Positions 1,193-35,583 of a stretch of DNA of 64,000 nucleotides are shown piece by piece. The notes under the pieces were generated by a model. That model searched no databases, had not been told where the DNA came from, and saw only the letters and a program-made list of their open reading frames with translations. The stretch lies in NCBI GenBank assembly GCA_963770565.1, contig CAVYQE010000002.1, forward strand, positions 320,001-384,000. The letters run 5' to 3'. A program made the position numbers and the translations under genes. Each line of letters begins with the position of its first letter. The stretch's first letter is position 1. This DNA comes from an uncultured Actinomycetota bacterium (lineage in GTDB: Bacteria > Actinomycetota > Actinomycetes > JAFAQI01).

Positions 1193-1870
1193 CTATGGGT
1201 TCAGCAGGCGGTAGCCAGCGCCGCGCACGGTGTAGATTAGGGCCTCGACGCCCGGGGTGTTGAGCTTGCGGCGGAGGTACCCGACGTACACGTCGACGAT
1301 GTTGGTGCCCGGGTCCGCGTTGTAGTCCCAGACGCTGTTGAGGATGTGGGTGCGGGTGAAAACCCGGGTCGGTTGCCGCATGAACAGCTCGAGGAGCGCC
1401 CATTCGCGCGGTGCCAGGTCGATTCGGCGACCGCTGCGCCAAGCGACCTTCGACAGCAGGTCGAGGCGCAGGTCGGACACCGCAAGCTCGGTCGAGCTCG
1501 GCTGCTCCGCGGTTCGCTGGCAGGCCCTGATCCGGGCCAGCAGCTCCTCGAACGCGAACGGCTTGACGACGTAGTCGTTGGCGCCGGCGTCCAGCCCGCG
1601 CACCCGGTCGCCGACCTCCGATCGGGCGGTCAGGACGATCACCGGTACGCCGTCGCCGCGGCCGCGTAGCCCGCGGAGCAAGGTCTCGCCGTCGGTGTCG
1701 GGCAGTCCGAGGTCGAGCAGCAGCAGGTCCGGCTTCGCGGCCGTGGCCTTCAGTGCGTGCTCGGCGTCAGCCGCGGTGTGCACGACATCACACGCATAGC
1801 CCTCGCCCCGGAGACCCTTGGCCAGAAACGACGCGATCCGCTCGTCGTCCTCGACCACCAAGATGCGCAT
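1193..1870 (-). CDS. OmpR-family response regulator
   Basis: MRILVVEDD, LLDLGLP, GANDYVVKPF receiver; winged-helix tail TVRGAGY. Confidence 0.95.
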   Translation of the reverse strand: MRILVVEDDERIASFLAKGLRGEGYACDVVHTAADAEHALKATAAKPDLLLLDLGLPDTDGETLLRGLRGRGDGVPVIVLTARSEVGDRVRGLDAGANDYVVKPFAFEELLARIRACQRTAEQPSSTELAVSDLRLDLLSKVAWRSGRRIDLAPREWALLELFMRQPTRVFTRTHILNSVWDYNADPGTNIVDVYVGYLRRKLNTPGVEALIYTVRGAGYRLLNP

Positions 1871-3375
1871 CAGGTCCCGGCCCCGCTCGTGACGATCGTG
1901 GGCGGCAGCACAATCGCAATCCGGGCGCCGCCCAGGGTGGAGTCGGTGACCTCGAGGTGGCCGCCGTGACCTTCGGCCACCGCCTTCACGATCGCCAGCC
2001 CTAGACCGGAGCCCCTGGTGGCCCCGGCATCGGGACGGCTGAAGCGATCCAGCACCACGTGCCGGCGATTGGCCGGGATGCCGGGTCCGCTGTCAGACAC
2101 GACCAGCTCGACCCAGCCGTCGGCGCGCTGCCGCGCCGCCAGCGCGATCTGGTCCCCCGGGCCGGTTGCGTTCACCGCGTTGTCCAGCAGGTTGAGCAGC
2201 GCACCCCGCAGCTTGTCGAGACTTGCGTGCAAGGTCAGGTCGGGTACGTCGCCAAGCTGCCAGTCCCGGTCGGCGAGCACCTGCGCGGTGGCGAACAGAT
2301 CGATCACCATGCTGCGCAGGTCGATCGGCGCCGGCTCGACGAAGTCGGGTTCGAGGGCGCGGCCGAGCATGAGCAGGCGCTCGACCAGGGCGGTCATGTG
2401 GTCGATCTCGTCGACGACCACCGCGATCGTCTCGTGCACGTCCTGCGGGTCGGCGGTGCCGGTACGACCGAGTACCTCGAGGTGACCGCGGGCGACCGTG
2501 AGCGGCGTACGCAGTTGGTGCGACACATCGGCGAGCAGGCTGCGCTGGGTCGCCATCGCAGCCGCCACCCGGTCGGCCATCGAGTCGAAGGTGGCCGCCA
2601 GCTTGCCCACCTCGTCGTCGGTGCCCTGGTCGCCGAGCCGGCGGTCCATCTCCCCCTGACCAAGGCCGGCGGCGGTCTCGGTGATCCGGCCGATCCGGCG
2701 GAGCAGTCCCCGCAAGAGCAGGTAGCCCGCGAAGGCGCCGGCCAGCAACGCGATCAGCGCCTCGATGAGGGCAAGGTGCAACACCCGCGACTCGTTCTCG
2801 CGGACCTGGTCCTGGGCGGCGGCAACGATGAACGTCGCCTGCGCCTGACCGGCGTGCACGGGGACCGCCAGGACCTCGTACGTCGTAGCACCCACCCGCA
2901 TCGACCGCTCGACCGACCGGGCCAGCGGCGAACCGAGCATGGACTCAATCGCCGGCGAGGAAGCGAACGGCGCGGAGTTCGCACTGCCGAGCGCCGACTG
3001 CCCCGGGAAGCCGATCAGGATGACCTGACCGTCGGGAAGCGCGTGGGTGCGGAGGTAGCTGCGACTGAACGACCGAAGCCCGACCTGGGTGCCACGCGCA
3101 TCGGCTGCGCGCTGAAATCCGACCACCTCGGCCGTCAGCAGATGGGTGGTCGTGGAGTGCGACTGGCTGGCGAAGGTCCGGACCAGGCTGAGCACCACAG
3201 CCGACAAGATGATTGCGAGGACGCCGGCCTGCAACAGACCGAGCCGAGCCGCAGTGCCGAGCCGGCGGTTTCGCCGCGGGCGATCAGGGCGTGCGGGCAG
3301 CACCTGGCGGCTGGCCGGCTCGTCGGGGTGCGATCGATCCCCCACTCCCGGCTGGGCTGCCGTCGTGGTGGCCAT
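1870..3375 (-). CDS. HAMP-domain sensor histidine kinase
   Basis: Two TM segments, HAMP, H-box DVSHQLRTPL, NLLDNA, DSGPG, GSGLGLAIV; start ATG 3375 or TTG 3381. Confidence 0.93.
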   Translation of the reverse strand: MATTTAAQPGVGDRSHPDEPASRQVLPARPDRPRRNRRLGTAARLGLLQAGVLAIILSAVVLSLVRTFASQSHSTTTHLLTAEVVGFQRAADARGTQVGLRSFSRSYLRTHALPDGQVILIGFPGQSALGSANSAPFASSPAIESMLGSPLARSVERSMRVGATTYEVLAVPVHAGQAQATFIVAAAQDQVRENESRVLHLALIEALIALLAGAFAGYLLLRGLLRRIGRITETAAGLGQGEMDRRLGDQGTDDEVGKLAATFDSMADRVAAAMATQRSLLADVSHQLRTPLTVARGHLEVLGRTGTADPQDVHETIAVVVDEIDHMTALVERLLMLGRALEPDFVEPAPIDLRSMVIDLFATAQVLADRDWQLGDVPDLTLHASLDKLRGALLNLLDNAVNATGPGDQIALAARQRADGWVELVVSDSGPGIPANRRHVVLDRFSRPDAGATRGSGLGLAIVKAVAEGHGGHLEVTDSTLGGARIAIVLPPTIVTSGAGT

Positions 3376-3377
3376 GG

Positions 3378-3791
3378 TCAATTATCGCCGCCGTGGCCGC
3401 CGCCTCCGTCGTCGTGCCCGTCGTCACTGCCGCCATGCCCGTCGTCACTGCCGCCGTCGCCGCCGCCGTAGTCACCGTGGTGGGTCGGCGTGGCCACGAC
3501 GACCGGCCGGCTCGGCGTGATCACCGTGACGGCCGTCGGCTCGGCAACCGGCGACTCGGTATCGGTCACCGTGACGGTCGGCGCCGGATGGGGATGTCGA
3601 TGGTGCCGAGGGGTCGCCGAGGACGCCGGACCGACCGCCGCCTCAGGGCGGACCGAGATCGCAAGCGGGATCGCCGATCGGTGCGTCCAGTGCGGGGCGG
3701 CGATGGCGACAAAGCCGAGCGTTGCCCCGATCGAGAGCGCAGCCGGGATCGACCACCAAGCTGCGCCGCGATCTCGCAGACCACGGGTCAC
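3378..3791 (-). CDS. Small membrane-anchored protein with Gly/Asp/His-rich tail
   Basis: N-terminal TM helix, Pro/Thr-rich middle, tail GGDGGSDDGHGGSDDGHDDGGGGHGGDN; abuts kinase start. Confidence 0.7.
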   Translation of the reverse strand: MTRGLRDRGAAWWSIPAALSIGATLGFVAIAAPHWTHRSAIPLAISVRPEAAVGPASSATPRHHRHPHPAPTVTVTDTESPVAEPTAVTVITPSRPVVVATPTHHGDYGGGDGGSDDGHGGSDDGHDDGGGGHGGDN

Positions 3792-3804
3792 GATGATCTC
3801 CCCC

Positions 3805-4029
3805 TCACCGATTCGCTGGGCGTTCGGCCGCCGACCGATCGATCAGCAGCGCGCGGCGCGGACAGGCCCGGGCAGCCCGAAGCGCCTTGCGGAGCACGGC
3901 GCCGGTGAGCGGCTCGGAGTCGGCGATCGCGAAGCCCCACGGGTCAAGTGTCACCCGTTCCGGCAAGACATGCGCGCAGATCCCGTGTCCTGCGCATCGC
4001 ACCATGTCCACCCGAATCGAGTCGGTCAT
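3805..4029 (-). CDS. Single-cluster ferredoxin ([3Fe-4S]-type)
   Basis: CAGHGIC...ACP pattern, 74 aa; ATGA overlap with upstream gene. Confidence 0.88.
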   Translation of the reverse strand: MTDSIRVDMVRCAGHGICAHVLPERVTLDPWGFAIADSEPLTGAVLRKALRAARACPRRALLIDRSAAERPANR

Positions 4030-4700
4030 CTGCGGCTGCCGCTGTAGTCGGGGCGGGCCACCATGCTCTCCGGCAGCACGGCGGCTCGCCGCGTGCAGGC
4101 CAGAACCGCCACCAGCAGGCCGCTCACGAGGTAGATCGGCAGGAGCACTCGCTCGTCACTTCCCGCCAGCACGCCGTGCAGCCACACGAGCGCAAACGCC
4201 ACCAGCGCGAGCCGGTGTACGGCGTACCAGGTCCGGCCGCCCACCCATCCGGCCAGCGCCGCAGTGAACCCGACCGCCAGCCCGACGTACAGGCTGATCG
4301 TGCCCAATGCGACGGCGAGCGGCCGGTAGCCGGATCGACCTGGGACGAACGCTCCCGACCACCCGACCCCCGCGAATCGATCGACGGACAGCGCAATCAC
4401 GTGTCCGGCGACGAGCAGCAAGACCATCGTCGCGAGCAACGAGTGGGCCCGGTGCGCACTCGCCGCACTCGGCCGTGGATGGTTGACCCGCCAGGGATGA
4501 CGCAGCCAAAGTCCCACCACGGTGAGCGCGGTCAGGGCGAGGTATGCGCCGACCCCGAACCCTCGGCCCAGGACCCACGGCAACATCCGGGCGGAGACGC
4601 GGCTGATCAGCGCCGCGGTGATCGCGTAGCCGACGGTCGCGGCGGCCGCGACCCACATCAGGTGCAGCGAGGAGTTCCGCTCGATGCTGGAAGTGCTCAC
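4026..4700 (-). CDS. Ferric reductase/MsrQ-like heme-b transmembrane protein
   Basis: Several TM helices with His residues (AHRAH, AGHV, WYAVHR, WLHG); GTG 4700 overlaps ApbE stop. Confidence 0.82.
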   Translation of the reverse strand: MSTSSIERNSSLHLMWVAAAATVGYAITAALISRVSARMLPWVLGRGFGVGAYLALTALTVVGLWLRHPWRVNHPRPSAASAHRAHSLLATMVLLLVAGHVIALSVDRFAGVGWSGAFVPGRSGYRPLAVALGTISLYVGLAVGFTAALAGWVGGRTWYAVHRLALVAFALVWLHGVLAGSDERVLLPIYLVSGLLVAVLACTRRAAVLPESMVARPDYSGSRR

Positions 4701-5674
4701 ATCGCCCGCCACAGAACGAAGGGCTCGACCTCCGGGGTGAACCGGGCTTGCCCGCTCGACTCGACCCAGATCGCCGCGACGCGCCGGCGGCGGGCTTCCT
4801 CGGCAATCCGTTCAGCACCGGCAAGAAACAGCGTCTTGCTCCAGACCTCCGCGACTGCGGCATCGTCGGCGACCACTGTCACGGCGGCCAGCCCGCGGCC
4901 ACCCGGCAGGCCGGTCCCCGGGTCGATCAGGTGGTGGACCCGGGTCGAGCCGATCGCCCACGAGCACACCCTGACCGAAGACGTGGCGACCGCCAGGTCG
5001 GAGAGCGTGAGCACTGCGGCCGGCAGTGCGCCACCGGACGGATCCTCGACGGCGAGCCGCCACGGCCCGCCGTCCGGCGACGACCCGTCGCACCAGCAGT
5101 CACCGCCGGCCTCGATCAGGAAGCCGACCCCGAGGGGCATGAGCCGCCCGGCCGCGGCCCGCACCGCCAGACCCTTACCGATCCCGCCGAGATCGATGGG
5201 CGCCGGACCCAAGCGAACCTGACGGGTGGAGGGCCGAAACTCCGGCTCCCAAGCCGGCAGCTCCGTGCGCGGTTGCAGGACCTCTTCGGCACGGTGACTC
5301 ATGGCGCCGAATCGGCGCGACCGGTCATAGCCGAGGCGCACCAGGTCGTCGTGCACGCGCGGGTCGAAGCGGCCGTCGGTCGCGCGGTAGGCCTCGGCCG
5401 CGGCGGCGAGGGCGTCGAAGCAGACCGGCGTCACCTCGCACCAGGAACCACCCGCCGCGTTCGCCCGCATCAGTGAGCTGTCCGGGTTGAACCGCGTGCA
5501 GTGCCGATCGACGTCGTGGAAGACCTCGAGCGCGTCGGTCATCGCCTCGATCACGTCACCGTCGCGCTCACTGCCCGCCACCGCCTGGATGGTGATCTCG
5601 CTGCCCATTGCGTGGGTGCTTCGCACCACCGTCGAGGTGTCGCAGTAGTCCACCTCGCGGATGTCGTCAGCCAC
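4697..5674 (-). CDS. apbE: FAD:protein FMN transferase (ApbE/Ftp family)
   Basis: AMGS, RFNPDSSL, IDLGGIGKG, EAGGD, AVATSS, HHLIDPGTG motifs; GTG start at 5674. Confidence 0.93.
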   Translation of the reverse strand: MADDIREVDYCDTSTVVRSTHAMGSEITIQAVAGSERDGDVIEAMTDALEVFHDVDRHCTRFNPDSSLMRANAAGGSWCEVTPVCFDALAAAAEAYRATDGRFDPRVHDDLVRLGYDRSRRFGAMSHRAEEVLQPRTELPAWEPEFRPSTRQVRLGPAPIDLGGIGKGLAVRAAAGRLMPLGVGFLIEAGGDCWCDGSSPDGGPWRLAVEDPSGGALPAAVLTLSDLAVATSSVRVCSWAIGSTRVHHLIDPGTGLPGGRGLAAVTVVADDAAVAEVWSKTLFLAGAERIAEEARRRRVAAIWVESSGQARFTPEVEPFVLWRAM

Positions 5675-6107
5675 CGCTTCCGCCGGTCGAGGACTGGGTC
5701 GGCGGTGGTGGCGGGGGCGCAGGTGCCGGTGCGGGCGGCTGGGTCGCCGGCGGCGCCCCGGAGCCCGACGTCGTGCCTCCTCCCGAGCCCTGCGACTGGA
5801 CCGGTGTTCGGTAAGCGAACGAGCCGCTGGTCGCAGCCGCATGCGGGAGGTGCGCCGACCGCCGGGCCACTTGTTTGAGGTCGCGACGGACCCGGGCAAG
5901 TCGCGCCTCGACGGCGAGCATCTCCCGCTCGGCGCGGGCATCCTGCGCGCTGTGCTGCGGCAGGGCCGCGACGGCCGGTACCGGGCGCGCCGGCAAGGTG
6001 GCGGCCGCCCAGGCGAGCGCGCCGGAGGTGACCGCCGAGGTCACGCCGACCACGACGACACTCACGCCGGCTGCCCGCCGAGCGCGGGCCTGGCGACTGT
6101 CAGTCAT
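5667..6107 (-). CDS. Exported TM/coiled-coil/Pro-rich protein ending in STGGSGG (candidate ApbE substrate)
   Basis: Hydrophobic N-terminus, coiled-coil-like middle, APAPAPPPPPP linker, terminal TQSSTGGSGG; overlaps both neighbours. Confidence 0.72.
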   Translation of the reverse strand: MTDSRQARARRAAGVSVVVVGVTSAVTSGALAWAAATLPARPVPAVAALPQHSAQDARAEREMLAVEARLARVRRDLKQVARRSAHLPHAAATSGSFAYRTPVQSQGSGGGTTSGSGAPPATQPPAPAPAPPPPPPTQSSTGGSGG

Positions 6108-6606
6108 CGCCACCGCCGTCGCCACCCCCGCCGTCGTCTCCACCGCCACCATGACCGTCATCTCCCCCGCCACCCTGACCCGACCCGCCGCTGGCGCCGG
6201 TGCTGCCGTGCGTCGACGGAGTCGGCGACGGAGCGACCGAATGGGTCGGGGTGGGCGCGGGGCGAGACGTCGGCGGAGCCGATGGCGCGCTCGCGGGTGG
6301 TGCCGCCTGCCGTGACTCTGCAAGCCGCTGTCGTGCCATCGCCTCGTTCTCGGCGTGTACCCGAGCGGCGAGGTTGTGCCGGGCCTTTCGCAGCGCGTCC
6401 TGCAGCCCCTGGTCCTGGCCGAGCAGGTGATTGAGCTGGCGCTGCAGCTCGGTCGTCTGTACGTCGGCCACCGGCCGCGAGGAAGCGGAGCCAGGTTTGG
6501 CGCTGGTCGCACTGGGGCCCTCGGCCTGCGTGAGCGCGAAGCCACCACCGGCGGTAACCGCACCGATCAGAGCGAGCGACAACAGGTTTCTACGTCGTGC
6601 GTCCAT
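6100..6606 (-). CDS. Exported (Tat-like) coiled-coil/Pro-rich protein with STGAS motif and Gly/Asp tail (candidate ApbE substrate)
   Basis: GGAGG RBS before ATG 6606; ARRRNLL plus hydrophobic stretch; THGSTGASGG followed by GGGGDD repeats. Confidence 0.75.
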   Translation of the reverse strand: MDARRRNLLSLALIGAVTAGGGFALTQAEGPSATSAKPGSASSRPVADVQTTELQRQLNHLLGQDQGLQDALRKARHNLAARVHAENEAMARQRLAESRQAAPPASAPSAPPTSRPAPTPTHSVAPSPTPSTHGSTGASGGSGQGGGGDDGHGGGGDDGGGGDGGGDD

Positions 6607-25921: not shown

Positions 25922-26005
25922 TGCCCGGGGTGGGGTTCGAACCCACAAACCCTTGCGGGCCAGGGCTTTTAAGGCCCCTGCGTCAGCCAGTTGCGCCACC
26001 CGGGC
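25922..26005 (-). tRNA. tRNA-Leu (anticodon UAA), bldA-type; CCA not encoded
   Basis: GCCCGGG acceptor stem; GGGGC-CTTAAAA-GCCCT anticodon arm; long variable arm; GGTTCGAACCC T-arm. Confidence 0.96.
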
Positions 26006-26042
26006 GGCACCCGAGACGCTACAAGCAACCGGCCGCGGCCGA

Positions 26043-27356
26043 CTACTGTTCGGCGGCGCTGGCGAACTCGCGCTTGGGCTCCGCGAACGTGCCCAACGAC
26101 ACGATCTCGCGCCGGAAGAACAACGCCAGCGTCCAGTCGGCGACGACCCGAACCTTACGGTTGAGCGTCGGCATCCGGGACACGTGGTAGGTGCGGTGCA
26201 TGAACCAGGCCGGGAACCCTTTGACCTTGATGCCGTAGACCTCCGCCACGCCGCGGTGCAGGCCGAGGCTCGCGACCGAGCCGGCGTAGGCATGGCGGTA
26301 GTCCCGAAGCGGTTTGCCCCGCAACGACGCCACCAGGTTGTCGCCCAGCTGCTTCGCCTGCCGGACCGCGTGTTGCGCAGTCGGCCCGCAGAGTGCATTC
26401 GGGTCGTCCTTGGTGAGATCCGGTACGGCGGCGCTGTCGCCGGCCGACCAGGCGCCCTCGACCCCTTCGACCCGGAGGTCGGGGCGGCACTTCAGTCGCT
26501 TGGCGCTGTCGAGCGGCAGGTCGGTCCGCTCCAACATCGGGTTGGCCCGGACGCCGGCCGTCCACACGATCGTGTCGCTCTCGAGCGTCGAACCATCGGT
26601 GAGCACCACCCGGCCGCCGATCATCGACTCGACCTTGGTGTTGCGGCGTACCTCGATGCCACGCTTCTCGAGCTGACGGACGGTGTATTCGGCCATGTCC
26701 GGGCTGACCTCGGGCAGGATCCGCCCGGTGGCCTCGACCATCACCCAGGTCATGTCCGGCTCGGTCAGGCCGGGATAGAACCGCAGCGCGTCGCGGGCCA
26801 TGTCCTCGAGCTCGGCGATCGCCTCGATGCCGGCGTAGCCGCCACCGATGAAGACGAAGGTCAGGGCCCGTCTGCGCAGCGCCGCGTCCTCCGTCGACAC
26901 GGCGAGGTCGAGGCGGGACAGCACCTGGTTGCGCAGGTAGATCGCCTCCGCGACGGTGTGGAAGCCGATGCCGTTCTCGGCCAGACCGGGAATCGGAAGC
27001 GTCCGCGCGATCGACCCGGGTGCCAGCACAAGCACGTCATAGGACAGGTCCCGGCCGGCCCCCTCGACCGGCTCGAACCGGGCCGTACGCCGTTCGTGAC
27101 TGAGCGAAGCGATCCGGCCATTGAGGATCTCGCAGCGGGTGAGGACCTTGCGCAGCGGCACGACCAGATGGCGCGGCTCCAAGTTGCCCGCGGCCGATTC
27201 CGGGAGGAACGGCTGGTAGGTCATGTACGACTGCGGGTCGACGATCGTGATCGTGGCCTCACCGCGCCGCAGCCGGCGTTGCAGCCGCAGCGCGGTGTAC
27301 ATGCCCACATAGCCGCCCCCGACGATCAGGATGCGTGGCGGCGACGGATTAGTCAT
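26043..27356 (-). CDS. ndh: Type II NADH dehydrogenase-family FAD oxidoreductase
   Basis: IVGGGYVG, YQPFLPE, IGGGYAGIE, WTAGV, AGD, PTAQHA. Confidence 0.92.
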   Translation of the reverse strand: MTNPSPPRILIVGGGYVGMYTALRLQRRLRRGEATITIVDPQSYMTYQPFLPESAAGNLEPRHLVVPLRKVLTRCEILNGRIASLSHERRTARFEPVEGAGRDLSYDVLVLAPGSIARTLPIPGLAENGIGFHTVAEAIYLRNQVLSRLDLAVSTEDAALRRRALTFVFIGGGYAGIEAIAELEDMARDALRFYPGLTEPDMTWVMVEATGRILPEVSPDMAEYTVRQLEKRGIEVRRNTKVESMIGGRVVLTDGSTLESDTIVWTAGVRANPMLERTDLPLDSAKRLKCRPDLRVEGVEGAWSAGDSAAVPDLTKDDPNALCGPTAQHAVRQAKQLGDNLVASLRGKPLRDYRHAYAGSVASLGLHRGVAEVYGIKVKGFPAWFMHRTYHVSRMPTLNRKVRVVADWTLALFFRREIVSLGTFAEPKREFASAAEQ

Positions 27357-27449
27357 GCTCAGTTCATACCCGAACGGTGGATTGCCAATAACGGCGCCCA
27401 GGTGCGTGAAATGGCACAGTAGACAGGTGGATCGTCGACAGGGGTCTCG

Positions 27450-30400
27450 ATGAGCGACGAGCCGGGTCGGATCATCGAGACCGGGCGGCGCACGACCTTC
27501 CGCGATGTCCTCGGGATCCATGAGTTCCGCGCGCTGTATCTCGCCCAGACCCTGAGCGTCGCCGGCGACCAAGTGGCCCGCATTGCAGTCGCGTCGATCG
27601 TGTTCCAGCGCACCCACTCCGCGCTGCTCACCGGCATCAGCTATGCGGTCACCTACCTCCCGTGGCTGATCGGCGGCCCGCTCGGATCGGTGTTCGCCGA
27701 CCGCCATCCGCGCCGGCACGTGATGATCGTCTGCGACACCCTGCGGATCCTGCTGGTGCTGCTGGTCGCGATCCCGGGGATGCCGACCGCACTCCTGCTG
27801 GTGCTGGTCACCATGGTGGCCTTCCTCGAGCCACCGTTCTCAGCGGCTCGGGCCGCCATGGTTCCGGACATCGTTGGCGAGGGCGACGCTTACGTCGCGG
27901 CGGCGACGCTGGGCAACTCGACGAACCAGCTCGCGGTCGTGGTCGGCTTCGCGGTCGGTGGTGCTCTGGTCGCACTCGTCGGCGCCCATGGCGCGCTGGT
28001 GGTCGACGCAGTGACCTTCGCGCTGTCCGCGCTGGTCGCCACCCGGTACGTCAGCCACCGCCCGGCAGCGATGGTCGAGCGCAGCCGCTGGCGCACCGAG
28101 ATCAGCGATGGCGCTCGCGTCGTCTTCCGCGACGCCAAGCTGCGCTGGCTCGTCGTCACGTCCTGGATCGTGGTCGGCACGGTCGTCGTCACCGAGGCGG
28201 TCGCCGTACCGTACGCGCGCTCTAGCGGCCACGGGGCCCTGGCGGCTGGCTTCCTCAGCGCCGCCGCCCCGCTCGGCATCGTCGTGGGCGCGTTGATCAT
28301 GGGCCGGGTCATGCGGCCCGAGACCGCCGAGCGGCTGATGCTGCCCACCGCACTGCTGGCGCCGGCGATTCTTGCCTTGACCGCGCTCAACTTGTCGCTG
28401 CCCGCCACCGGGGCGCTCTGGTGCGTCGCGGGCGCGATGAGCGCGATGACGGTGGTCGCAAACCGGGTCTTCGTGGTCTCGGTCCGGCACGAGCTGCGCG
28501 GCCGGGCGTTCGGAATCGCCGCGGCCGGCATCTCCGGCGCGCAGGGCATCGGCACGCTGATGGCCGGCCTGCTCACCTCGCACGTGGGCGTCACGCACGC
28601 CGTCGCGGACGTCGCACTGCCCGCTTTCGCCCTCATCGTCGTCTTCTCGGTCGGTTCTGCGTCCTTCAGGCAGCGTCAGCTTGGGTCGATATCGGATGTA
28701 TCGCCCCCGGAGGACGAGGACTTTGCCATGCCGGCACTGAAGCGCCGATCCGAGCTACGGGTCTGGACGCTCAACGCCGTGCTCGCAATCGTTGCCTTCG
28801 CAACCGCGCCACTGCTGCGGCACGACCACGCGTACGCCGGCCTGAACCTGCCCGCCTGGTGGGTGCTCTGCCTGTTCGTGCTGGGATTCGCCTTCCCGCT
28901 GCGGTTCGAATACCGCCAGCAGTCCTGGAACATCTACCTCGAGACCGTGCCGTTCGTGCTCGGTCTGCTGTTCCTCCCGCCGCTGATCCTGCTCGCCCTC
29001 CGGACCGGCGCCGTGGTCATCACCTATGCCATCCTCCGGCGGCAACCGGTGATCCGCAGCGCGTTCAACACCACCAGCGCGGCCTGCCACACCCTGGCCG
29101 GGATTTGGATGCTTCGACTGCTGGCACCCGATCACGCCGCTGCTCATCCATCGGTCTGGCCGGCCGTGTTCGCCGCGGTCATCTTCAGCGAGCTGGTATC
29201 CGGTTCCCTGGTCGCCCTGGTGATCTCCACCACGGACACGTCATGGCAGCTCAGGCAGAGCGTCCGGACCGCCATGATCGGCACCGGCGTGGCCACCGCG
29301 ATGGCCTTCCTCGGCCTGGCGATGGCGGCTGCGATCGACTACGACCAGGCGACCGCCTGGGCGATCACGGTCTTCGTGGTGCTCTCGATCGCCGGGCTGC
29401 AGACCTACCAGCGCCTGTCCGAGCGGGCCAACGCACTCGACCGGCTCTACGTGGTGGCCCGCGAGCTGAGCCCGACCGCGACCGGGCCGGCGGACCTGGC
29501 GCCGGCCCTCACCCAGCTACGCCGGATCATCAAGGCCGACTCGCTCGAGCTCGCGGCACCGTCCGGCAACGACGGCGAGTTCGCCACGGTCGTGAGCGTC
29601 TTCGACGACCCGACCAAGGGCGAGGGCACCAGCGTCTCCGAGCGACCGATCGGTGAAGGCTTCGACGCCATGTCGAGCGCCAACGCACCGAGCTCGCACT
29701 GGGCCTGGATCCCGCGACTCGGCCAGCGCCGGGCCACCCACATGCTGTCCACCCCGGTCAAGACCGGCGAACGCGTGCTCGGGCAGCTGACCGTCACGAA
29801 CCGGCCGGGTGAGTCCCAGGCCTTCGAGCGGGCCGACCTGCGGCTGTTGGAAGCGGCCGCCGACCAGATCGCCGCCGCGCTCGAGAAGGGCCGCCTGGTC
29901 GAGAGCCTGCGCCGGGCCGCGACGCTGGACAAGCTGACCGGCCTGGCCAACCTCGAGAGCCTGCGGTCCTTCCTTGACACCACCCTCGACGGCTCGGCCG
30001 GCGGCGTACTCGTCCTGCTCAACATCGACCGCTTCCACGAGGTCAACGACATGCTCGGCCACGACGCCGGCGACAGCGTGCTGGCCGAGGTCGCGCGCCG
30101 GCTCGAGAGCTCGCCCACACACGGCGCCCTCGTCGCGCGAGTCGGCGGCGACCAGTTCGCCCTGGCGATTCCTGGCGCTGCCGGCAGCGAAGTCGCCCGG
30201 CTGGCGGCGATGGCGGTCAAGTCCCGGGTGGACGGCTCGATCCGGTTCGCCGACGTCAGCGCCGACGTGCGGGTCACGATCGGCATCGCGCGCGCGCCCG
30301 ACCACGGCAGCGACGCCGCAACCCTGCTCCGGCGGGCCGAGATGGCGATGACCGCCGCCAAGGGCGGTACGTCGGGCATCGGCGAGTGGGAGCCGGACTA

Positions 30401-31205
30401 CGAGCGCGACGGCAGCCGGCGGCTCCAGTTGCTCGCCGGGCTTCGCACTGCCCTCGGCGACGGCGCGCTACGGGTCGCCTACCAGCCGAAGCTCCGACTG
30501 GGCAGCGGCGAGGTGACCGGCTTCGAGGCGCTCGTGCGGTGGAACCACCCGGAGCTCGGCCCGATCTCGCCGGCCGAGTTCGTCCCGCTCGCCGAAGCGA
30601 CCGGTCTGATCTCGGCACTGACCAGCACGGTGCTGCGGTCGGCGCTGACCACCTGCCGGTCCTGGCACGACGCCGGCAAGCCGGTGGGGATCGCGGTCAA
30701 CATCTCGGCCCGCAGTCTCGACGACTCGGTGCTGGTCGGACAGGTCGCGGCCATGCTGACCGCCAGCGGCCTCGAGCCCCGCTGGCTGACCTTGGAGATC
30801 ACCGAGAGCAGCGTCATGGAAGACCAGTCCCGCAGCGTCGACGTCCTGCGCGAGCTGCGGATGCTCGGCGTCCGGCTCTCGATCGACGACTTCGGCACCG
30901 GCTACTCCTCGCTGCACCAGCTGCGCGGGCTGCCGGTACACGAGGTGAAGATCGACCGAACCTTCGTCGAGACGGTCGACTCGGACGAAGCCGATCGCGC
31001 CGTGGTGCGGGCGGTGGTCGAGCTGTGTGACTCACTCGGCCTGGTCACGGTGGCCGAAGGCGTGGAGAAGGCCGCGCAGGCCTACGCGCTCGAGACCCTC
31101 GGAGTCGCGCAGGTGCAGGGCTACTTCCACGGTCGCCCGATGACCGAGGCGGCGGCGATGGAGTGGCTGCTGCCGCGCCGGGTCGCGTCGTTCGCGACCT
31201 TCTAG
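27450..31205 (+). CDS. MFS transporter fused to membrane sensor-GAF-GGDEF(degenerate)-EAL protein
   Basis: aa 1-~410 MFS (FRALYLAQTLS, FADRHPRR, ELRGRAFG); second TM block; GAF-like FERADLRLL; GGDQF at 30144; EAL at 30525 with EITES, DDFGTGYSS, AEGVE, QGY. Confidence 0.88.
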   Translation: MSDEPGRIIETGRRTTFRDVLGIHEFRALYLAQTLSVAGDQVARIAVASIVFQRTHSALLTGISYAVTYLPWLIGGPLGSVFADRHPRRHVMIVCDTLRILLVLLVAIPGMPTALLLVLVTMVAFLEPPFSAARAAMVPDIVGEGDAYVAAATLGNSTNQLAVVVGFAVGGALVALVGAHGALVVDAVTFALSALVATRYVSHRPAAMVERSRWRTEISDGARVVFRDAKLRWLVVTSWIVVGTVVVTEAVAVPYARSSGHGALAAGFLSAAAPLGIVVGALIMGRVMRPETAERLMLPTALLAPAILALTALNLSLPATGALWCVAGAMSAMTVVANRVFVVSVRHELRGRAFGIAAAGISGAQGIGTLMAGLLTSHVGVTHAVADVALPAFALIVVFSVGSASFRQRQLGSISDVSPPEDEDFAMPALKRRSELRVWTLNAVLAIVAFATAPLLRHDHAYAGLNLPAWWVLCLFVLGFAFPLRFEYRQQSWNIYLETVPFVLGLLFLPPLILLALRTGAVVITYAILRRQPVIRSAFNTTSAACHTLAGIWMLRLLAPDHAAAHPSVWPAVFAAVIFSELVSGSLVALVISTTDTSWQLRQSVRTAMIGTGVATAMAFLGLAMAAAIDYDQATAWAITVFVVLSIAGLQTYQRLSERANALDRLYVVARELSPTATGPADLAPALTQLRRIIKADSLELAAPSGNDGEFATVVSVFDDPTKGEGTSVSERPIGEGFDAMSSANAPSSHWAWIPRLGQRRATHMLSTPVKTGERVLGQLTVTNRPGESQAFERADLRLLEAAADQIAAALEKGRLVESLRRAATLDKLTGLANLESLRSFLDTTLDGSAGGVLVLLNIDRFHEVNDMLGHDAGDSVLAEVARRLESSPTHGALVARVGGDQFALAIPGAAGSEVARLAAMAVKSRVDGSIRFADVSADVRVTIGIARAPDHGSDAATLLRRAEMAMTAAKGGTSGIGEWEPDYERDGSRRLQLLAGLRTALGDGALRVAYQPKLRLGSGEVTGFEALVRWNHPELGPISPAEFVPLAEATGLISALTSTVLRSALTTCRSWHDAGKPVGIAVNISARSLDDSVLVGQVAAMLTASGLEPRWLTLEITESSVMEDQSRSVDVLRELRMLGVRLSIDDFGTGYSSLHQLRGLPVHEVKIDRTFVETVDSDEADRAVVRAVVELCDSLGLVTVAEGVEKAAQAYALETLGVAQVQGYFHGRPMTEAAAMEWLLPRRVASFATF

Positions 31206-31314
31206 ATCTACCAGCGACTTGACTGAGGATGTTGACCGGTCCTGGCCTGCGCGCGGGCTGGTGGCGGCGCACCCAGCTCGACGATCTCGGCGAATCGACC
31301 GGGCCGGAAAATAG

Positions 31315-31360
31315 CGATGGGTTACGACCCGGCGCTGCAGCACCAACTCGTAACCCATCG
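31315..31360 (-). terminator. Long hairpin (terminator or 3' stabiliser) between convergent transcripts
   Basis: Perfect 13-bp inverted repeat CGATGGGTTACGA/TCGTAACCCATCG; inner 7 bp pair fully only on the minus strand through three G-U pairs. Confidence 0.7.
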
Positions 31361-31424
31361 AACCGACCTGTCGTCACAATGGAGGACACGTCGTATCTGG
31401 TTTTAGCTTAGGAGAGCTCTCGGC

Positions 31425-31451
31425 TCAGCCCCAGCCCTGCGCGTTCTGCAC
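31425..31451 (-). CDS. Candidate micropeptide MQNAQGWG (or MTVQNAQGWG from ATG 31457)
   Basis: Minus strand GCGGAGGTGATGACA-GTG CAG AAC GCG CAG GGC TGG GGC TGA; 9-nt SD GGAGGTGAT, GGAGG 8 nt before GTG; all sense codons end in G/C. Confidence 0.55.
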   Translation of the reverse strand: MQNAQGWG

Positions 31452-31719
31452 TGTCATCACCTCCGCCTCACTGGTTCGCTTGTCTTCGCGGTCCAGTGTG
31501 CGCCAGATGGAGCAGTCCCGGTAGGCCAGATGGCGGAATATCTTCGCACCAAATTCGGACATTCGGCTACAGCAGTCCACTAAACGGTCGTTCAATCCGC
31601 GGCAAACGGCTCAAGGTCACTACGCCATCTGCCGAATACCCGTTCGGCCGAGTGGTCTAACCATCGATCGGCCGGATGCAGCAGTCGGCCGACCGACCGA
31701 CCCGAACCCGTGAACTTGC

Positions 31720-32502
31720 CTAGCTGAGGTAACTCACGGCCCGCGCGAACACGGCGTCGAGCATTGGCTCGGTCAGCTTGCCGGTGAAGGTGTTCTGCTG
31801 GCTCGGGTGGTACGAGCCGATCAGCAACAGGTCCCGGTCCGTGCGTACCTGTGCGAGGTGCCCGAACCGCACGCGTGGCGACGGCAGGCCATGTCCGAGC
31901 TCGGCAAGCACCGGCCACAGCGCGTTCCAGGCGAACCCGCCGAGCGCGACGATCGCCTGCAGTGTCGGCGCGAGCAGTGAGAGCTCGCGCACCAGCCACG
32001 GCCGGCAGGTCACCCGCTCGGTCGGCGTCGGCAAGTTCTGCGGCGGCGCGCAGCGGACCACCGCAAGCATCCGTACGTCGAGCAGCTCCTGGCCGTCACC
32101 GGCCGCCACGGAGGTCGGCAGCCGCGCCAGTCCCATTCGGTGCAGGGAAGCGAACAGCCAGTCCCCGCTGCGGTCACCGGTGAACACCCGCCCGGTCCGG
32201 TTGCCACCATGCGCGGCCGGCGCAAGGCCGACCACCGCGATCCGCGCATCGGCCGGCCCCCAGCCGGTGATCGGCCGGCCCCAGTACGCCTCGCCGGAGA
32301 ACGACGCACGCTTGGTCTCGGCAACCTGCTCTCGCCAGGCGACCAGCCGCGGGCAGGCTCGGCAGACCGAAATCACCGCGTCGAGCCCGTCGAGCGACCC
32401 AGCCGCCCCAGCGAGGTCGACAACGTCGGCCGGGGTTTGCGCGACCGGCGTCCGCAGGTCGGCATGATCGCCGGGCCAACCCGATCCCGGCGCGACGACC
32501 AC
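31720..32502 (-). CDS. udgB: Uracil-DNA glycosylase family 5
   Basis: CRACPRL, GLAPAAHGGNRTGRVFTGD, YHPSQQNT. Confidence 0.92.
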   Translation of the reverse strand: MVVAPGSGWPGDHADLRTPVAQTPADVVDLAGAAGSLDGLDAVISVCRACPRLVAWREQVAETKRASFSGEAYWGRPITGWGPADARIAVVGLAPAAHGGNRTGRVFTGDRSGDWLFASLHRMGLARLPTSVAAGDGQELLDVRMLAVVRCAPPQNLPTPTERVTCRPWLVRELSLLAPTLQAIVALGGFAWNALWPVLAELGHGLPSPRVRFGHLAQVRTDRDLLLIGSYHPSQQNTFTGKLTEPMLDAVFARAVSYLS

Positions 32503-32530
32503 CCGGCCATCCCACCATCACGCCAGGTGG

Positions 32531-32932
32531 TTAACGCGCTCGCACCTTGTTGTTACGGGCTTCATGCGTGAGCTCGGCCAGGCCGAGCGCCTCGAGCAAC
32601 GGCGGCACGTACATCCCGAAGCGGCCGCGGTAACCCTTGCGCAGGCCGTACCAGCCACCGACCGGATTGGACTCCGACCGGCCCCAGGCCTCGACCGTTC
32701 CGTCCGCCGCGGGCTTGTTCTCATCGGCCGCGCCGAGGTCGACCCAGTCGCCTTGGGCTTTCAACCAGGCATGCAGGTCCTCGATACACCGCGCCTGGTA
32801 GCTCAGCTTGGTCGAGCCGACCTGGCAGATCAGCGCCGGCGGGTCGGCCGCGTCGTCGCGATACATCGTGTACTGAGAACTTCCTGGGGCTGTCGTCAGC
32901 ACCCAGGGGTCGTCCTTGGTCCCGTCGCCCAC
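32531..32932 (-). CDS. Conserved hypothetical protein (DUF6855-like)
   Basis: GTKDDPW...NPVGGWYGLRKGYRGRFG; family assignment from recall. Confidence 0.65.
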   Translation of the reverse strand: MGDGTKDDPWVLTTAPGSSQYTMYRDDAADPPALICQVGSTKLSYQARCIEDLHAWLKAQGDWVDLGAADENKPAADGTVEAWGRSESNPVGGWYGLRKGYRGRFGMYVPPLLEALGLAELTHEARNNKVRAR

Positions 32933-33009
32933 CCTTGCTCACCCCTTCGGCCGGACTCCGGCAAGGCTCCCATGTCGTTGCCGGGGTGTCGCGGGCGGAT
33001 GATGACGCG

Positions 33010-33720
33010 ATGAGCGACCGCGCCGCCGCGACCGCGGGACCGTGGCCCGCCTTGCTCGACGACCCGGCGCACGGCCCGCTGCCCGCCGCCTTGCTGATCC
33101 TCACGGTCGTCACTGGGCTGGTCGACGCCGTGAGCATCCTCGACCTGGGCCGGGTCTTCGTCGCCAACATGACCGGCAACGTCGTGTTCGTGGGATTCGC
33201 GCTGGCCGGCGCGCCTGGCTTCTCCCTTGCGGCGTCGCTGTCTGCCCTCGGCGGCTTCCTCGTGGGGGCCGCCGCGGCCGGCCGGCTGGTCGCTCAGCTG
33301 AAGGACAACCGGCCGGCCCTGATCCGGGCCGGACTCCTGGCCGAGTTCGCCCTGGCGGTCGTCGCCTTGACGATCTCCGTCGCCGAAGGGCGCCACCTCG
33401 CGGAAATGGCCCGGGATCTGATCGCCGCCGACCTCGCCATTGCGATGGGTTTGCAGAACGCGGTCGTCCGCGAGCTCAAGGTGCCGGACCTGACGACCAC
33501 GGTCCTCACGATGACCCTGACCGGGATTGCGGCCGAGATTCGGACCGCAGGGTCGAGCGTCGCGATCCGGCGGATTCTTGCGGTGCTCTGCATGCTCGGC
33601 GGCGCCGCGCTCGGCGCCGTACTGGTGATCCACGCCGAACCTGCCTGGGCACTTGCGGCAGCGACCGGGCTGATGGCGGCGGCACTGCTGCTGCTCGCCG
33701 TACGACGCGACTGGGCCTGA
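33010..33720 (+). CDS. YoaK/DUF1275 membrane protein
   Basis: TGLVDA, FVANMTGN, MGLQNA, TTVLTMTL. Confidence 0.9.
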   Translation: MSDRAAATAGPWPALLDDPAHGPLPAALLILTVVTGLVDAVSILDLGRVFVANMTGNVVFVGFALAGAPGFSLAASLSALGGFLVGAAAAGRLVAQLKDNRPALIRAGLLAEFALAVVALTISVAEGRHLAEMARDLIAADLAIAMGLQNAVVRELKVPDLTTTVLTMTLTGIAAEIRTAGSSVAIRRILAVLCMLGGAALGAVLVIHAEPAWALAAATGLMAAALLLLAVRRDWA

Positions 33721-33727
33721 GCAGCGG

Positions 33728-34072
33728 TCAGCCGTCGAGCCAGTGCAGGGTCGCGACCAGGCCACCGACCACCTCGACCGGGGCGGTCGGACCAATCGGA
33801 TCGGCGTCCTTGATCCTGATCTCGTAGCTGCCTTCATGCAGCGCGGAGAACACCGCCGCCCACACCGAGCCGCTCTGCAGTACCCGCTCCAGCACGGCCA
33901 CATGGGTGCCCGTCCACGGGTCACCGACCGCGCGGATCTCGATCTCCTCACCGGCCAGCGAGGCGGGCAGGTAGATCACCGCCGCGCCCACCTCGCCGCC
34001 GATGTCGAGGACCACCGTGCCGACGCCACTCGGCTCGGGCCGGGTCTCCACCGCGGCCACCGTCGCCGTCAT
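33728..34072 (-). CDS. Small Ig-like hypothetical protein associated with DUF4331
   Basis: VVLDIGGEVGAAVIY, THVAVLER; ATGA overlap with DUF4331 stop. Confidence 0.72.
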   Translation of the reverse strand: MTATVAAVETRPEPSGVGTVVLDIGGEVGAAVIYLPASLAGEEIEIRAVGDPWTGTHVAVLERVLQSGSVWAAVFSALHEGSYEIRIKDADPIGPTAPVEVVGGLVATLHWLDG

Positions 34073-35583
34073 CCGGTGCTCCCGGTCTGCGTCGCAGACG
34101 GGGTCGCGAAGCCGCTGTACGGCGTACCGAGGTAGGGGAATGCGGACAGGTAGTTCTCCGTGCCCATCGCTGAGTTGTCGGTTCCACTCGAGGTGAGGCC
34201 GAAGCTGACCGCACCGGCCGCGCCATCAGCGGTGTAGGCCCCGTCCACCAGGGGGATCGTCGCGCCGGCGATCGCGCGCAGCTCGATCGTCGCCACGTCG
34301 TCGAACACCCGACGGCCGTTCGGGAAGCCGGCCGGGTCGCCGCCGAGATAACCGAGGTTGTTGGCGCTGCCGGGATCGGTCGGCGGCTGCGCGACGTTGA
34401 GCCGCAGCTGATCGGCCAACGCAGTGCCGCCGACGTTGGTCGGCGGCGCACCGAGACCGGAGGTCACACTGTTCGGGATGCCGGACAGCAGGATCGCGAC
34501 CAGGTCGGGCCGCGCCGCGTTCGACTTGCTCGTCCCGTGGTGCGCCGCGTTGTAGGCCGCCAGGTTCGGGAAGACACCGGGGTAGAGCGACGGCAGCAGC
34601 TCGGCGAGCAACGGGTTGGCGAAGTACTTGAAGAACTCCGAGCCGTCGGAGGTGGGGGCAAGGTGGTTCCAGTAGTCCTTGTCCTCGATCGCGATGATCA
34701 CCTCGTTGACCAGCGGGTTACCCAGGCGCGAGACCTGGACGTGCGGGCCGGCTTCGACGTTCTCGCCGCGCCTGGCATCGTTGACGGTCACCTTGCGGCG
34801 GCTCGCGGTGGTCCAGATCCCGATCACCGCGTTCGACGCCGTCGTCGATGTCGGCGTCTTGCCGCCCGACACCAGCTCCTTGATCGGGACCTGCAACGCC
34901 AGCGAGTGGACATTGACGTTCGCGGTCGAGTTGACGCCGGGCATGTTTGCCAGCGCACTGCCGACGTGGGCATGTGCGAACGGCCGCAGGTCACCGAGGT
35001 CGAAGACGGCGCCGAGGTCGACGTAGAAGCCTTCCGCCCGCTGGCCGGCAAACACCGTTCCATGGTGGCCGTGTGCGTTGAACTTCTGGATCGCCGACGT
35101 GCCGCTGCTGGGCAGGTACGACGCGGCGTAGTCGGGCGTCGAAAGCGGTCCGACGTTGCACGGTGGGACGAGCAGGTCCGTGCCGAGCACCTTGAACGTC
35201 GCCGGGCCGTTCTTCGGGTAGTCGACGCGGGTCAGCGTGAAGGTCTGCTGACGGTTCCAGTTCGTGCCCGCAGTCCCGGGCGCCGACAGCGTGATCGGCC
35301 CGTCGTTGTAGAGGAATGACGACGGGATGTTGTTCACCGTCTTGAACTGGAAGTGATACGCCAGGTTGACCTTGCCGTCGCCGTCGTTGTCGACATTGAT
35401 GGCGTAGAGCACGTCGTCGGCGAACTCGTAGAAGTTCGGCCCGCCGTCGGGCCGCTGCGACGGAATGTAGTTGGCGATCAGGGTGACCGTCGACGGCTTG
35501 TCCGGGCTGACGAACGCGTACAGGTCGGTGCTGTCGGCGGTCGGGTCCTTCGAGATCTGCGGAGCTTCACGGTGCGACGACAT
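34069..35583 (-). CDS. DUF4331 family protein, no signal peptide
   Basis: MSSHREAP, DSTDLYAF, QVSRLGNPLVNE, GFPNGRR, FPYLGTP. Confidence 0.9.
   Translation of the reverse strand: MSSHREAPQISKDPTADSTDLYAFVSPDKPSTVTLIANYIPSQRPDGGPNFYEFADDVLYAINVDNDGDGKVNLAYHFQFKTVNNIPSSFLYNDGPITLSAPGTAGTNWNRQQTFTLTRVDYPKNGPATFKVLGTDLLVPPCNVGPLSTPDYAASYLPSSGTSAIQKFNAHGHHGTVFAGQRAEGFYVDLGAVFDLGDLRPFAHAHVGSALANMPGVNSTANVNVHSLALQVPIKELVSGGKTPTSTTASNAVIGIWTTASRRKVTVNDARRGENVEAGPHVQVSRLGNPLVNEVIIAIEDKDYWNHLAPTSDGSEFFKYFANPLLAELLPSLYPGVFPNLAAYNAAHHGTSKSNAARPDLVAILLSGIPNSVTSGLGAPPTNVGGTALADQLRLNVAQPPTDPGSANNLGYLGGDPAGFPNGRRVFDDVATIELRAIAGATIPLVDGAYTADGAAGAVSFGLTSSGTDNSAMGTENYLSAFPYLGTPYSGFATPSATQTGSTG

Follow-up and report, generated by a model that had tools for sequence, protein, structure and literature searches.

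Peptide signalling in actinobacteria is, in our assessment, poorly known, and few of the membrane sensors in cyclic di-GMP (c-di-GMP) enzymes have a known ligand. Quorum sensing has been described as under-explored in this phylum (PMC4748050). The present study concerns a locus from an uncultured member of the Actinomycetota (class Actinomycetes, JAFAQI01; assembly GCA_963770565.1, contig CAVYQE010000002.1), contained in a stretch of 64,000 nucleotides (positions 320,001 to 384,000 of the contig) that is referred to here as the window and from which coordinates are counted unless another locus is named. At this locus a micro open reading frame (micro-ORF) of eight codons, MQNAQGWG, faces a gene whose predicted product joins a transporter of the major facilitator superfamily (MFS) to a second membrane block and to GAF, GGDEF and EAL domains. 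Comparison of related sequences gives good support to a three-part module of which the window locus is one instance and which several actinobacterial families share. Its first part is a putatively translated, leaderless peptide of 5–9 residues with Trp last or second-to-last; the other two are best read as a dedicated DHA3/EntS-like MFS pump and a c-di-GMP enzyme with a MASE9-like multi-helix input.

Several described systems share features with this module. The microcin C operon encodes, besides the peptide MccA (MRTGNAN), the MFS exporter MccC, and several module peptides begin M-R-x-G as MccA does. The microcin C precursor is a heptapeptide, and termination occurs after mccA (PMC4231749, PMC6495379). 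The two have in common a gene of about seven codons, read as translated directly from its own Shine-Dalgarno (SD) sequence, with a hairpin after it. Microcin C precursors, however, have Asn as their last residue and depend on adenylation by the enzyme MccB, whereas the module peptides conserve Trp and only one of 47 distinct ones ends in Asn; no ThiF-like (MccB) gene occurs among the neighbours scanned by Pfam (seven loci only), which leaves the module outside the microcin C family, and its third partner is a c-di-GMP enzyme. Biarylitides, with the core motif M-x-Y-x-H, provide a further likeness in actinobacteria, namely a minimal, directly translated peptide gene. Their gene bytA has five codons and lies beside a cytochrome P450 gene (10.1101/2020.07.21.214643, PMC12002111). 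Biarylitides need this adjacent P450, but none was seen among the scanned module neighbours, and the motif differs.

ComX of Bacillus is a Trp-prenylated pheromone with an essential Trp near its C-terminus; it derives by cleavage from a precursor of about 55 residues, receives its prenyl group from ComQ, which is encoded alongside, and is sensed by the multi-transmembrane kinase ComP. The module resembles ComQXPA in its short Trp peptide, in its many-helix candidate receptor and in the fast divergence of the peptide between close relatives, and differs in that the peptide is leaderless (8 codons here) and the candidate receptor has c-di-GMP turnover as its output, not a histidine kinase. A link to a ComQ-like prenyl transferase was considered and rejected, the three PF00348 genes of the genome lying on contigs C1 and C11 and not on C2. 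At one locus of genus g8 of the order (L153 of genome G020, 3786-5930) the module has beside it a polyprenyl synthetase gene (331 aa), at 1.2 kb from that of the MFS, and the gene of a small protein with RTX repeats (185 aa); the synthetase recalls ComQ but was judged a coincidental neighbour.

On the enzyme side, Sd-Amt1 (Amt-HAMP-GGDEF) fuses a transporter module to a c-di-GMP enzyme, the transporter module serving signal input (PMC11152129); its transporter is nonetheless Amt and not MFS, its ligand is ammonium, and it has no genetically encoded ligand. MASE9 enzymes likewise carry an integral-membrane sensor ahead of GGDEF-EAL or HD-GYP outputs (10.1101/2021.11.05.467447), but the module domain matches Pfam MASE9 below threshold only. 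No TPR regulator of the RRNPP kind was found among the Pfam-scanned neighbours, no search having been aimed at one. The first-pass annotation of the window, made by a model from the sequence alone, knew of no characterised system with such a layout, and the literature (subscription journals and supplements lying outside its scope) likewise yielded no description of a module of MFS, micro-ORF and GGDEF/EAL enzyme or of five peptide strings. As judged from sequence, the module would be a variant of peptide signalling that we have not found described in print.

The larger gene of the window locus (27450..31205, plus strand) encodes 1251 residues, and its domains were assigned from Pfam and NCBIfam matches and an alignment of 14 sequences. 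Residues 1-420 (27450..28709) form a DHA3/EntS-like MFS transporter domain (PF07690, 1.2e-21; PF05977, 2.7e-14), residues 426-665 (28725..29444) a second membrane block, a candidate sensor that appears distantly MASE9-like, and residues 666-815 (29445..29894) a GAF region (Pfam GAF, GAF_2 and GAF_3; Foldseek matches to solved GAF domains), followed by a degenerate GGDEF domain with the signature GGDQF (29919..30362; PF00990, 4.7e-29) and an EAL c-di-GMP phosphodiesterase domain with intact motifs (30441..31139; PF00563, 7.6e-70). The Pfam spans are residues 29-319 (MFS_1), 24-394 (MFS_3), 724-812 (GAF), 824-971 (GGDEF) and 998-1230 (EAL). Membership of the MFS is clear from PF07690 (77.5 bits, cut-off 33.4), PF05977 (53 bits, cut-off 27), which together cover residues 24-394, and the hydropathy peaks. 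The nearest NCBIfam models are the H+ antiporter TIGR00900 (3.1e-46), EntS (1.4e-22) and Tap efflux (9.8e-16), all matched below the cut-offs for these named exporters (158 vs 319.6, 80 vs 324 and 58 vs 625, respectively).

The catalytic and metal-binding motifs of EAL domains are EAL, N, EXXE, DDFGTGYSS, K, E and Q. All are present in the window protein (PF00563, 235 bits), and E1026-A-L, N1084, E1116-ITES, D1146-DFGTGYSS, K1167, E1203 and Q1223 are invariant in 14 orthologues. In place of the active-cyclase signature GG[DE]EF the protein has GGDQF, of which G899, D901, Q902 and F903 are invariant in the same orthologues. Since both GGDQF and the EAL motifs are invariant, the protein is best read as a phosphodiesterase (PDE) with a degenerate cyclase domain, and hydrolysis by EAL is predicted to be the only live catalytic output of the window-family fusion. 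Homologues of the fusion protein form more than 100 full-length clusters at 48–88% identity. In a locus of family f2 (L019 of G026, 1477-5351) a 457-aa MFS frame and a 1266-aa open frame for the sensor-PDE lie in different reading frames; these seem to be two adjacent genes, or else an assembly frameshift, and the fusion may have arisen within family f1. Metagenome loci L061-L140, picked via generic EAL motifs, proved to be ordinary GGDEF-EAL proteins and not orthologues, and were excluded.

The micro-ORF (31425..31451, minus strand) reads GTG-CAG-AAC-GCG-CAG-GGC-TGG-GGC-TGA and is preceded by the SD sequence GGAGG (31460..31464, minus strand), 8 nt ahead of GTG; its stop lies 220 bp from that of the fusion gene, the two genes being convergent. 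An in-frame ATG further upstream is just 2 nt from the SD and is AGG in the closest relative (L003), so that GTG is taken as the conserved start. About 66 nt past the micro-ORF stop there is a hairpin of 12+7 bp (31316-31359) with a U tract (31306-31315, minus strand), the hairpin being followed by GCUAUUUU on the minus strand; the 186-nt stretch that contains it folds at -81.2 kcal/mol (z = -3.1 vs shuffles). A simple terminator scan of 31150-31760 missed the hairpin, as its loop and stem exceed the scan rules. The hairpin is likely the terminator of the micro-ORF transcript and probably also terminates the convergent fusion gene. These analyses confirm the architecture given in the first-pass annotation, both the 1251-residue frame with MFS, second multi-transmembrane block, GAF, GGDEF and EAL (by Pfam and hydropathy) and the opposite-strand MQNAQGWG about 220 bp downstream with its SD and its own hairpin (by sequence and folding).

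A strict pattern for such genes (GGAGG-N5-9-ATG/GTG-4..8 codons-TGG-0..1 codon-stop) has four matches on both strands of the 4,428,154-bp genome, and its chance expectation is about 3e-4 per 700-nt stretch on one strand, which speaks against a chance occurrence of the micro-ORF. By nhmmer and a covariance model the micro-ORF element is single-copy in this genome, and Rfam 15 gave no match to window positions 26000-34000 at E up to 1. A second candidate of the same genome, VKTCRAW at C8:196173, lies between two GGDEF-EAL genes, with no homologue of the MFS or of the second membrane block nearby, and was judged random; the surrounding region (G000:C8:191771-199333) is a three-gene GGDEF/EAL cluster on another contig, with this chance-level frame between its genes.

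Conservation was examined in the order, which comprises 38 species genomes; 40 relatives were searched for the fusion protein and the DNA after each match was read. A micro-ORF of the same layout is present in 31 of the 38 genomes (29 at the syntenic site and two, of genus g8, elsewhere); among the remaining seven, the contig stops at the site or the marker gene is missing in six, and one (G014) is truly without a micro-ORF. SD, start, Trp and stop are retained in all 29 syntenic loci. Between SD and start there are 8 nt in 20 of the 29 related loci, with a range of 5–9 nt over all of them, while the length in the 29 genomes is 6, 7, 8, 9, 15, 17 or 18 codons, every change keeping the frame. 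Almost all of the orthologous loci read have an SD-led frame of this kind, encoding, for instance, MQKGHGWG, MAKGHTWS, MQYGNAGWG, MTGHDW and MTQIVRWG; one carries MRNGHIWA in four tandem copies, and genus g1 has four different peptides in five genomes. A strong equivalent hairpin lies 3' of the micro-ORF in related loci, at about 15 to 66 nt from the stop. The gene order across the order is NDH-2 <- -> MFS-sensor-PDE -> <- micro-ORF <- UDG, with the micro-ORF always just downstream of a single-copy UDG-family gene. With an arrangement so fixed, synteny alone could explain the link between micro-ORF and pump, and natural variants are needed to separate them.

Such variants occur in two genera and in one further genome. 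Three genomes of genus g6 (G009, G045, G049) retain only the MFS and keep an 8-residue micro-ORF, while a sister clade in g6 (G019, G044, G048, G051) has neither MFS nor PDE and its micro-ORF encodes 15–18 residues, hydrophobic and ending in GWG or GWEG (for example MQALISVVAIVLHTIGWG). In a UDG tree these four genomes form one clade (support 99/95), so that the disappearance of the MFS, together with the longer peptide, is scored as a single event. Genome G014 retains only the GGDEF-EAL piece and has lost the micro-ORF. In two g8 genomes (G011, G020) a stand-alone MFS gene with different neighbours is accompanied by the same upstream boxes and by MCNAATWS or MCHGATWS, divergent from the MFS; the best match of this MFS in the window genome is the MFS domain of the fusion (210 bits, the next being 56). 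The MFS is also a stand-alone gene in the three g6 genomes and in Kribbella. Downstream of UDG in six class-level outgroups (including G040, an unpublished genome) no such micro-ORF was found. Taken with the g6 and g8 variants, this indicates that the micro-ORF follows the pump and not UDG.

Other features of these loci were noted in passing. In one genome of the window's genus (L002 of G001, 5236-6290) an insertion has added a gene, encoded on the strand of the micro-ORF, that separates the micro-ORF from the PDE gene; MQSGQGWG and its boxes are retained about 1 kb away despite the insertion. In genus g6 loci (L036, L039, L141-L145) the 30 nt that follow the UDG stop include a conserved motif like TTATCCACA, which we take to resemble a DnaA box. 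Beyond UDG, window positions 32896-35583 contain open reading frames without Pfam match (351 and 167 aa) and one for a DUF4331 protein (504 aa, E 7e-126); these are outside the module.

Outside the order, MFS homologues were searched in 400 genomes of the class. With flanks of 1.5 kb a micro-ORF was seen in only 2 of 18 loci; ten loci, chosen with knowledge of earlier hits and thus a biased sample, were then widened, and seven of them have one (L187, L189 and L190 do not). The arrangements include another MFS-GAF-GGDEF-EAL fusion, to which MRGTTWH is convergent (G107); an MFS facing two copies, MRGADWA and MRGADWC, before an X-GGDEF gene (G054); MPHNKIWT upstream of an MFS with a divergent GGDEF-EAL gene (G052); MRGKGWC with a divergent MFS on one side and a GGDEF-EAL gene on the other (G121); and an MFS facing an X-GGDEF gene from which M[RS]STQWG is divergent (G093, G143 and a second G052 locus). 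With Kribbella and tandem arrays included, the triad is found outside the order in at least six arrangements, fused or split, convergent, divergent or on the same strand. Loci labelled as an Oscillatoriaceae cyanobacterium and as Candidatus Melainabacteria (L203, L206) match the actinobacterial module at 42–53% identity, L203 having NDH-2 and UDG neighbours as in the window's family; both are probably mis-binned contigs.

An unbiased sample was obtained by scanning named genomes with an MFS-only alignment, which gave 80 loci with flanks of 6 kb on either side. A GGDEF or EAL gene lies within 6 kb in 63 of these, at least one pattern ORF is present in 52, and in 50 it adjoins the module. Near the MFS there are 77 pattern ORFs in 323 kb (0.238 per kb) vs 11 in the distal flanks of these loci (621 kb, 0.018 per kb), an enrichment of 13-fold; the genome-wide density in the window's genome is 0.0079 per kb. 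By type of neighbour, a micro-ORF occurs at 22 of 23 loci with an EAL-bearing gene, at 22 of 40 with GGDEF only and at 5 of 17 with none. It lies on the opposite strand after the enzyme gene in 15 loci and between MFS and GGDEF in 23; in others it lies between MFS and GGDEF genes on the same strand (5), upstream of the MFS (4) or after an MFS without GGDEF neighbour (3). SD-led Trp micro-ORFs and MFS partners, whose absence from homologous loci was to count against the proposal in the first-pass annotation, are both present.

The layout in cultured Kribbella is MFS -> <- MQNNDW (or MANNDW, MRNNDWH, MRNTDWH, MRNNNDWG), then -> X-GGEEF, and the partner protein P0122 has the GGEEF cyclase signature. 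Carrier strains include K. soli KCTC 29219 and K. sindirgiensis DSM 27082, both with MQNNDW, and K. pittospori NRRL B-24813, with MRNNDWH. In about ten Kribbella species ATG CAG AAC AAC GAC TGG is invariant, whereas the SD-to-start spacer and the flanks vary and the stop is TAA, TAG or TGA. Arrays of 2–8 copies, each with its own SD, are also found, such as eight copies of MRGAKWTR in a metagenome-assembled genome of Kineosporiaceae and six of MSNGWG. Of the 47 distinct peptides, 41 have one residue after Trp, five have none and one has two; R or Q usually occupies position 2, and the residues ahead of Trp are chiefly G, N, H and T. The scanned neighbours (seven loci, Pfam) have no tailoring or biosynthetic enzyme in common, and an unmodified peptide is therefore the simplest assumption. 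Divergent from the MFS there is a flavoprotein gene both in Kribbella (an FAD_binding_3 monooxygenase; L211, 4766-5890) and in the window's family (a type II NADH dehydrogenase; 26043-27335); the two belong to different families, and this may be coincidence.

The second membrane block (residues ~430-660 by hydropathy, with at least six peaks) has no Pfam match above threshold. The AlphaFold model of residues 426-815 is helical up to the GAF fold (mean pLDDT 77.6), and Foldseek against the PDB with this model gave matches to the GAF part only. When the profile of the block was compared by hhalign with the 254-residue N-terminal domain of Kribbella-type cyclases, the two aligned over 168 columns (probability 94.7%, E 6.3e-8), and this homology indicates that the same membrane domain accompanies peptide and pump with either PDE or cyclase output. 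The nearest clusters in a protein atlas are MASE9 (score 0.96), 18–32% of cluster members carrying MASE9. Pfam MASE9 (PF20972) itself has no match to the window block at E up to 10, and sub-threshold matches to 2 of 17 block relatives (best E 0.028) and 1 of 19 Kribbella-type domains (E 0.57). The designation "MASE-type" used for this block in the first-pass annotation is thus roughly borne out, and the block can be regarded as a distant MASE9-like domain common to fused and unfused enzymes. The paper that defines MASE9 describes a promiscuous membrane sensor with a ligand site proposed within the membrane, and names neither a ligand nor partner genes (10.1101/2021.11.05.467447). Prediction of a complex between the Kribbella MFS and the MASE9-like domain returned a null score, which gives no answer and counts neither way.

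Upstream of the micro-ORF there is a conserved block of about 90 nt that, from the alignments, looks like promoter or operator DNA (31493..31563, minus strand; alignments A1 and A3). It contains a -10-like CACACT (31495-31500), a pair of CCWWWWGG-like CCAGATGG boxes with a spacing of 23 bp (at 31503-31510 and 31526-31533) and a AATGTCCGAATTT box (31551-31563), all on the minus strand. An indel of 10–11 nt between the two boxes, that is one helical turn, separates genera. With a model of the block (R1), 20 of 36 family genomes each give a single strong match. The block is without consensus RNA structure (-0.39 kcal/mol), for which reason a reading as riboswitch or small RNA (sRNA) was dropped, and a sigma-70 consensus scan of 31150-31760 found nothing. 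We infer that the block is regulated promoter DNA. Family f1 has the two CCWWWWGG boxes at this spacing, and in g8 they take the form of the inverted pair CCGAATGG / CCATTCGG (L153, 2380-2500); further operator-like sequences upstream of the micro-ORF are a TGTCACA palindrome (CTTGTCACAAG) in several f1 genera and CTCTGTCACAGAG in Kribbella (L211, 7330-7350).

From these observations we hold it very probable that the micro-ORF is a real peptide gene and, with almost the same assurance, that peptide, pump and c-di-GMP enzyme form one functional module. That the sensor has an exporter-like MFS fused to it or beside it suggests that the peptide is exported and then sensed at the membrane. Expressed from a regulated promoter of its own, the peptide would arise in the cytoplasm and leave through the MFS, and the MASE9-like domain would detect it at the membrane or inside it, GAF relaying the signal; the result would be altered c-di-GMP breakdown in the window family and altered synthesis in Kribbella-type modules, and the outcome an autocrine or quorum-like peptide input to c-di-GMP. 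The comparison establishes the sequence features, the conservation as a reading frame, the linkage of the three parts and the homology of the sensor domain. What we infer beyond this is translation of the micro-ORF, export of its peptide and hence the direction in which the MFS transports, peptide binding and the sign of the resulting effect, and the full export-and-sense mechanism is plausible, if somewhat short of probable. A more specific form, in which an unprocessed Trp pheromone of 5–9 residues is secreted by the MFS, bound within the membrane by the MASE9-like domain and directly switches c-di-GMP synthesis or hydrolysis, is put forward tentatively and is more doubtful.

Several explanations compete with export and sensing of a peptide signal. 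The peptide could be an exported public good (metal-binding, antibiotic-like or nutrient-scavenging), with the enzyme reading the state of the pump or another membrane cue in the manner of a transceptor. The richness of the peptides in Gly, Asn and His, the tandem arrays, which suggest bulk production, and the occurrence of MFS and peptide without enzyme in g6 and g8 all agree with this, as does the fusion of MFS and sensor in several families and their separation in others, which suggests that the membrane parts cooperate; Sd-Amt1 is moreover a precedent for a transporter module acting itself as receptor (PMC11152129). The sensor domain is nevertheless conserved with the peptide even as a separate protein and with cyclase or PDE output, the micro-ORF accompanies nearly every EAL-bearing neighbour (22/23), and no biosynthetic enzyme is conserved among the neighbours of the seven scanned loci, so that a public good appears unlikely. 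Alternatively the peptide may be an intracellular modulator whose function does not involve export; it would bind from the cytoplasmic or the membrane side, either to the MFS or to the MASE9-like domain, the pump being its target or sink. That a peptide can control a c-di-GMP enzyme has a precedent in the cyclase YfiN, to which phage-encoded peptides bind (PMC8085984), the peptide has no signal sequence, and a hydrophobic, membrane-seeking stretch was gained in the very clade that lost the MFS; yet 5–9 polar residues are in our judgement unusually short for a stable intracellular ligand, and secretion better fits a dedicated exporter-like MFS and multi-copy arrays, which makes an intracellular role decidedly unlikely.

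The micro-ORF might, on the other hand, be a cis element, either an attenuator of the upstream-ORF type or part of an sRNA, its Trp codon sensing Trp-tRNA or stalling ribosomes at a terminator. The hairpin 3' of the micro-ORF and the Trp as single invariant codon would fit, and in 2 of the 80 loci the micro-ORF does immediately precede an MFS gene of its own strand; in G121 it lies about 70 nt upstream of the GGDEF-EAL gene. Against this, its position and strand vary between loci, arrays reach eight copies with an SD for each, changes in length keep the frame, and in the window its strand has nothing downstream but the terminator and the 3' end of the convergent gene; these features favour a trans-acting peptide over a cis element. 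As the distance from stop to hairpin is also variable (~15 to 66 nt) and neither an Rfam match nor a conserved RNA structure upstream was found, a cis element is very improbable. That gene order was conserved without function, the micro-ORF being an accident between UDG and the MFS-EAL gene, would account for its constant place downstream of UDG within the order, but not for its absence after UDG in the six class-level outgroups, its occurrence without UDG in g8, Kribbella and other families, or the 13-fold enrichment over distal flanks; this explanation was already disfavoured and is scarcely credible.

A number of observations weigh against export and sensing as a general scheme. The peptide occurs without a linked sensor-PDE in seven g6 and two g8 genomes, and four of the g6 genomes retain it without MFS, grown to 15–18 hydrophobic residues. 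A peptide kept without linked enzyme, and once without pump, means that the circuit is not strictly closed, and further sensors or roles for the peptide are possible. The first-pass annotation had proposed a self-contained circuit; of this the linkage of the three parts stands, since it recurs across Actinomycetota, and the self-containment does not, so that its interpretation is overall partly supported. The degenerate GGDQF of the window's family, with hydrolysis as the only predicted output, and the GGEEF cyclase that takes its place in Kribbella also count against strict self-containment. In the unbiased sample 17 of 40 loci with GGDEF-only neighbours are without micro-ORF, and no pattern ORF was found in 30 of 80 loci, including all seven of Actinomycetospora; a scan with relaxed SD and start rules of 24 negative loci added ORFs in L257 only (MRTDWG, MSIDWD), Actinomycetospora being still negative. 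The search pattern was drawn up with the first examples already known, and related genomes do not count as independent. Synonymous-site evidence is thin, as Trp has one codon and the remaining codons are the preferred ones, and a search of sequencing runs with the stretch listed soil DNA contigs only and no RNA run. The outward direction of transport, finally, is suggested by exporter similarity that is itself sub-threshold.

As regards significance, the module puts a genetically encoded candidate ligand, a likely pump and a likely receptor side by side, and the Kribbella carriers, which are cultured and non-pathogenic, make a direct test with a synthetic hexapeptide possible. Genes of 6–9 codons escape annotation, yet they can be found through conserved context, and the Trp-peptide genes, if true, would be among the shortest bacterial genes. 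If peptide export and sensing operate as proposed, the peptide would be the first ligand for a MASE-type domain and the first peptide quorum signal that acts directly on c-di-GMP, without a kinase or an RRNPP receptor, and its fast-diverging middle residues would represent pherotypes.

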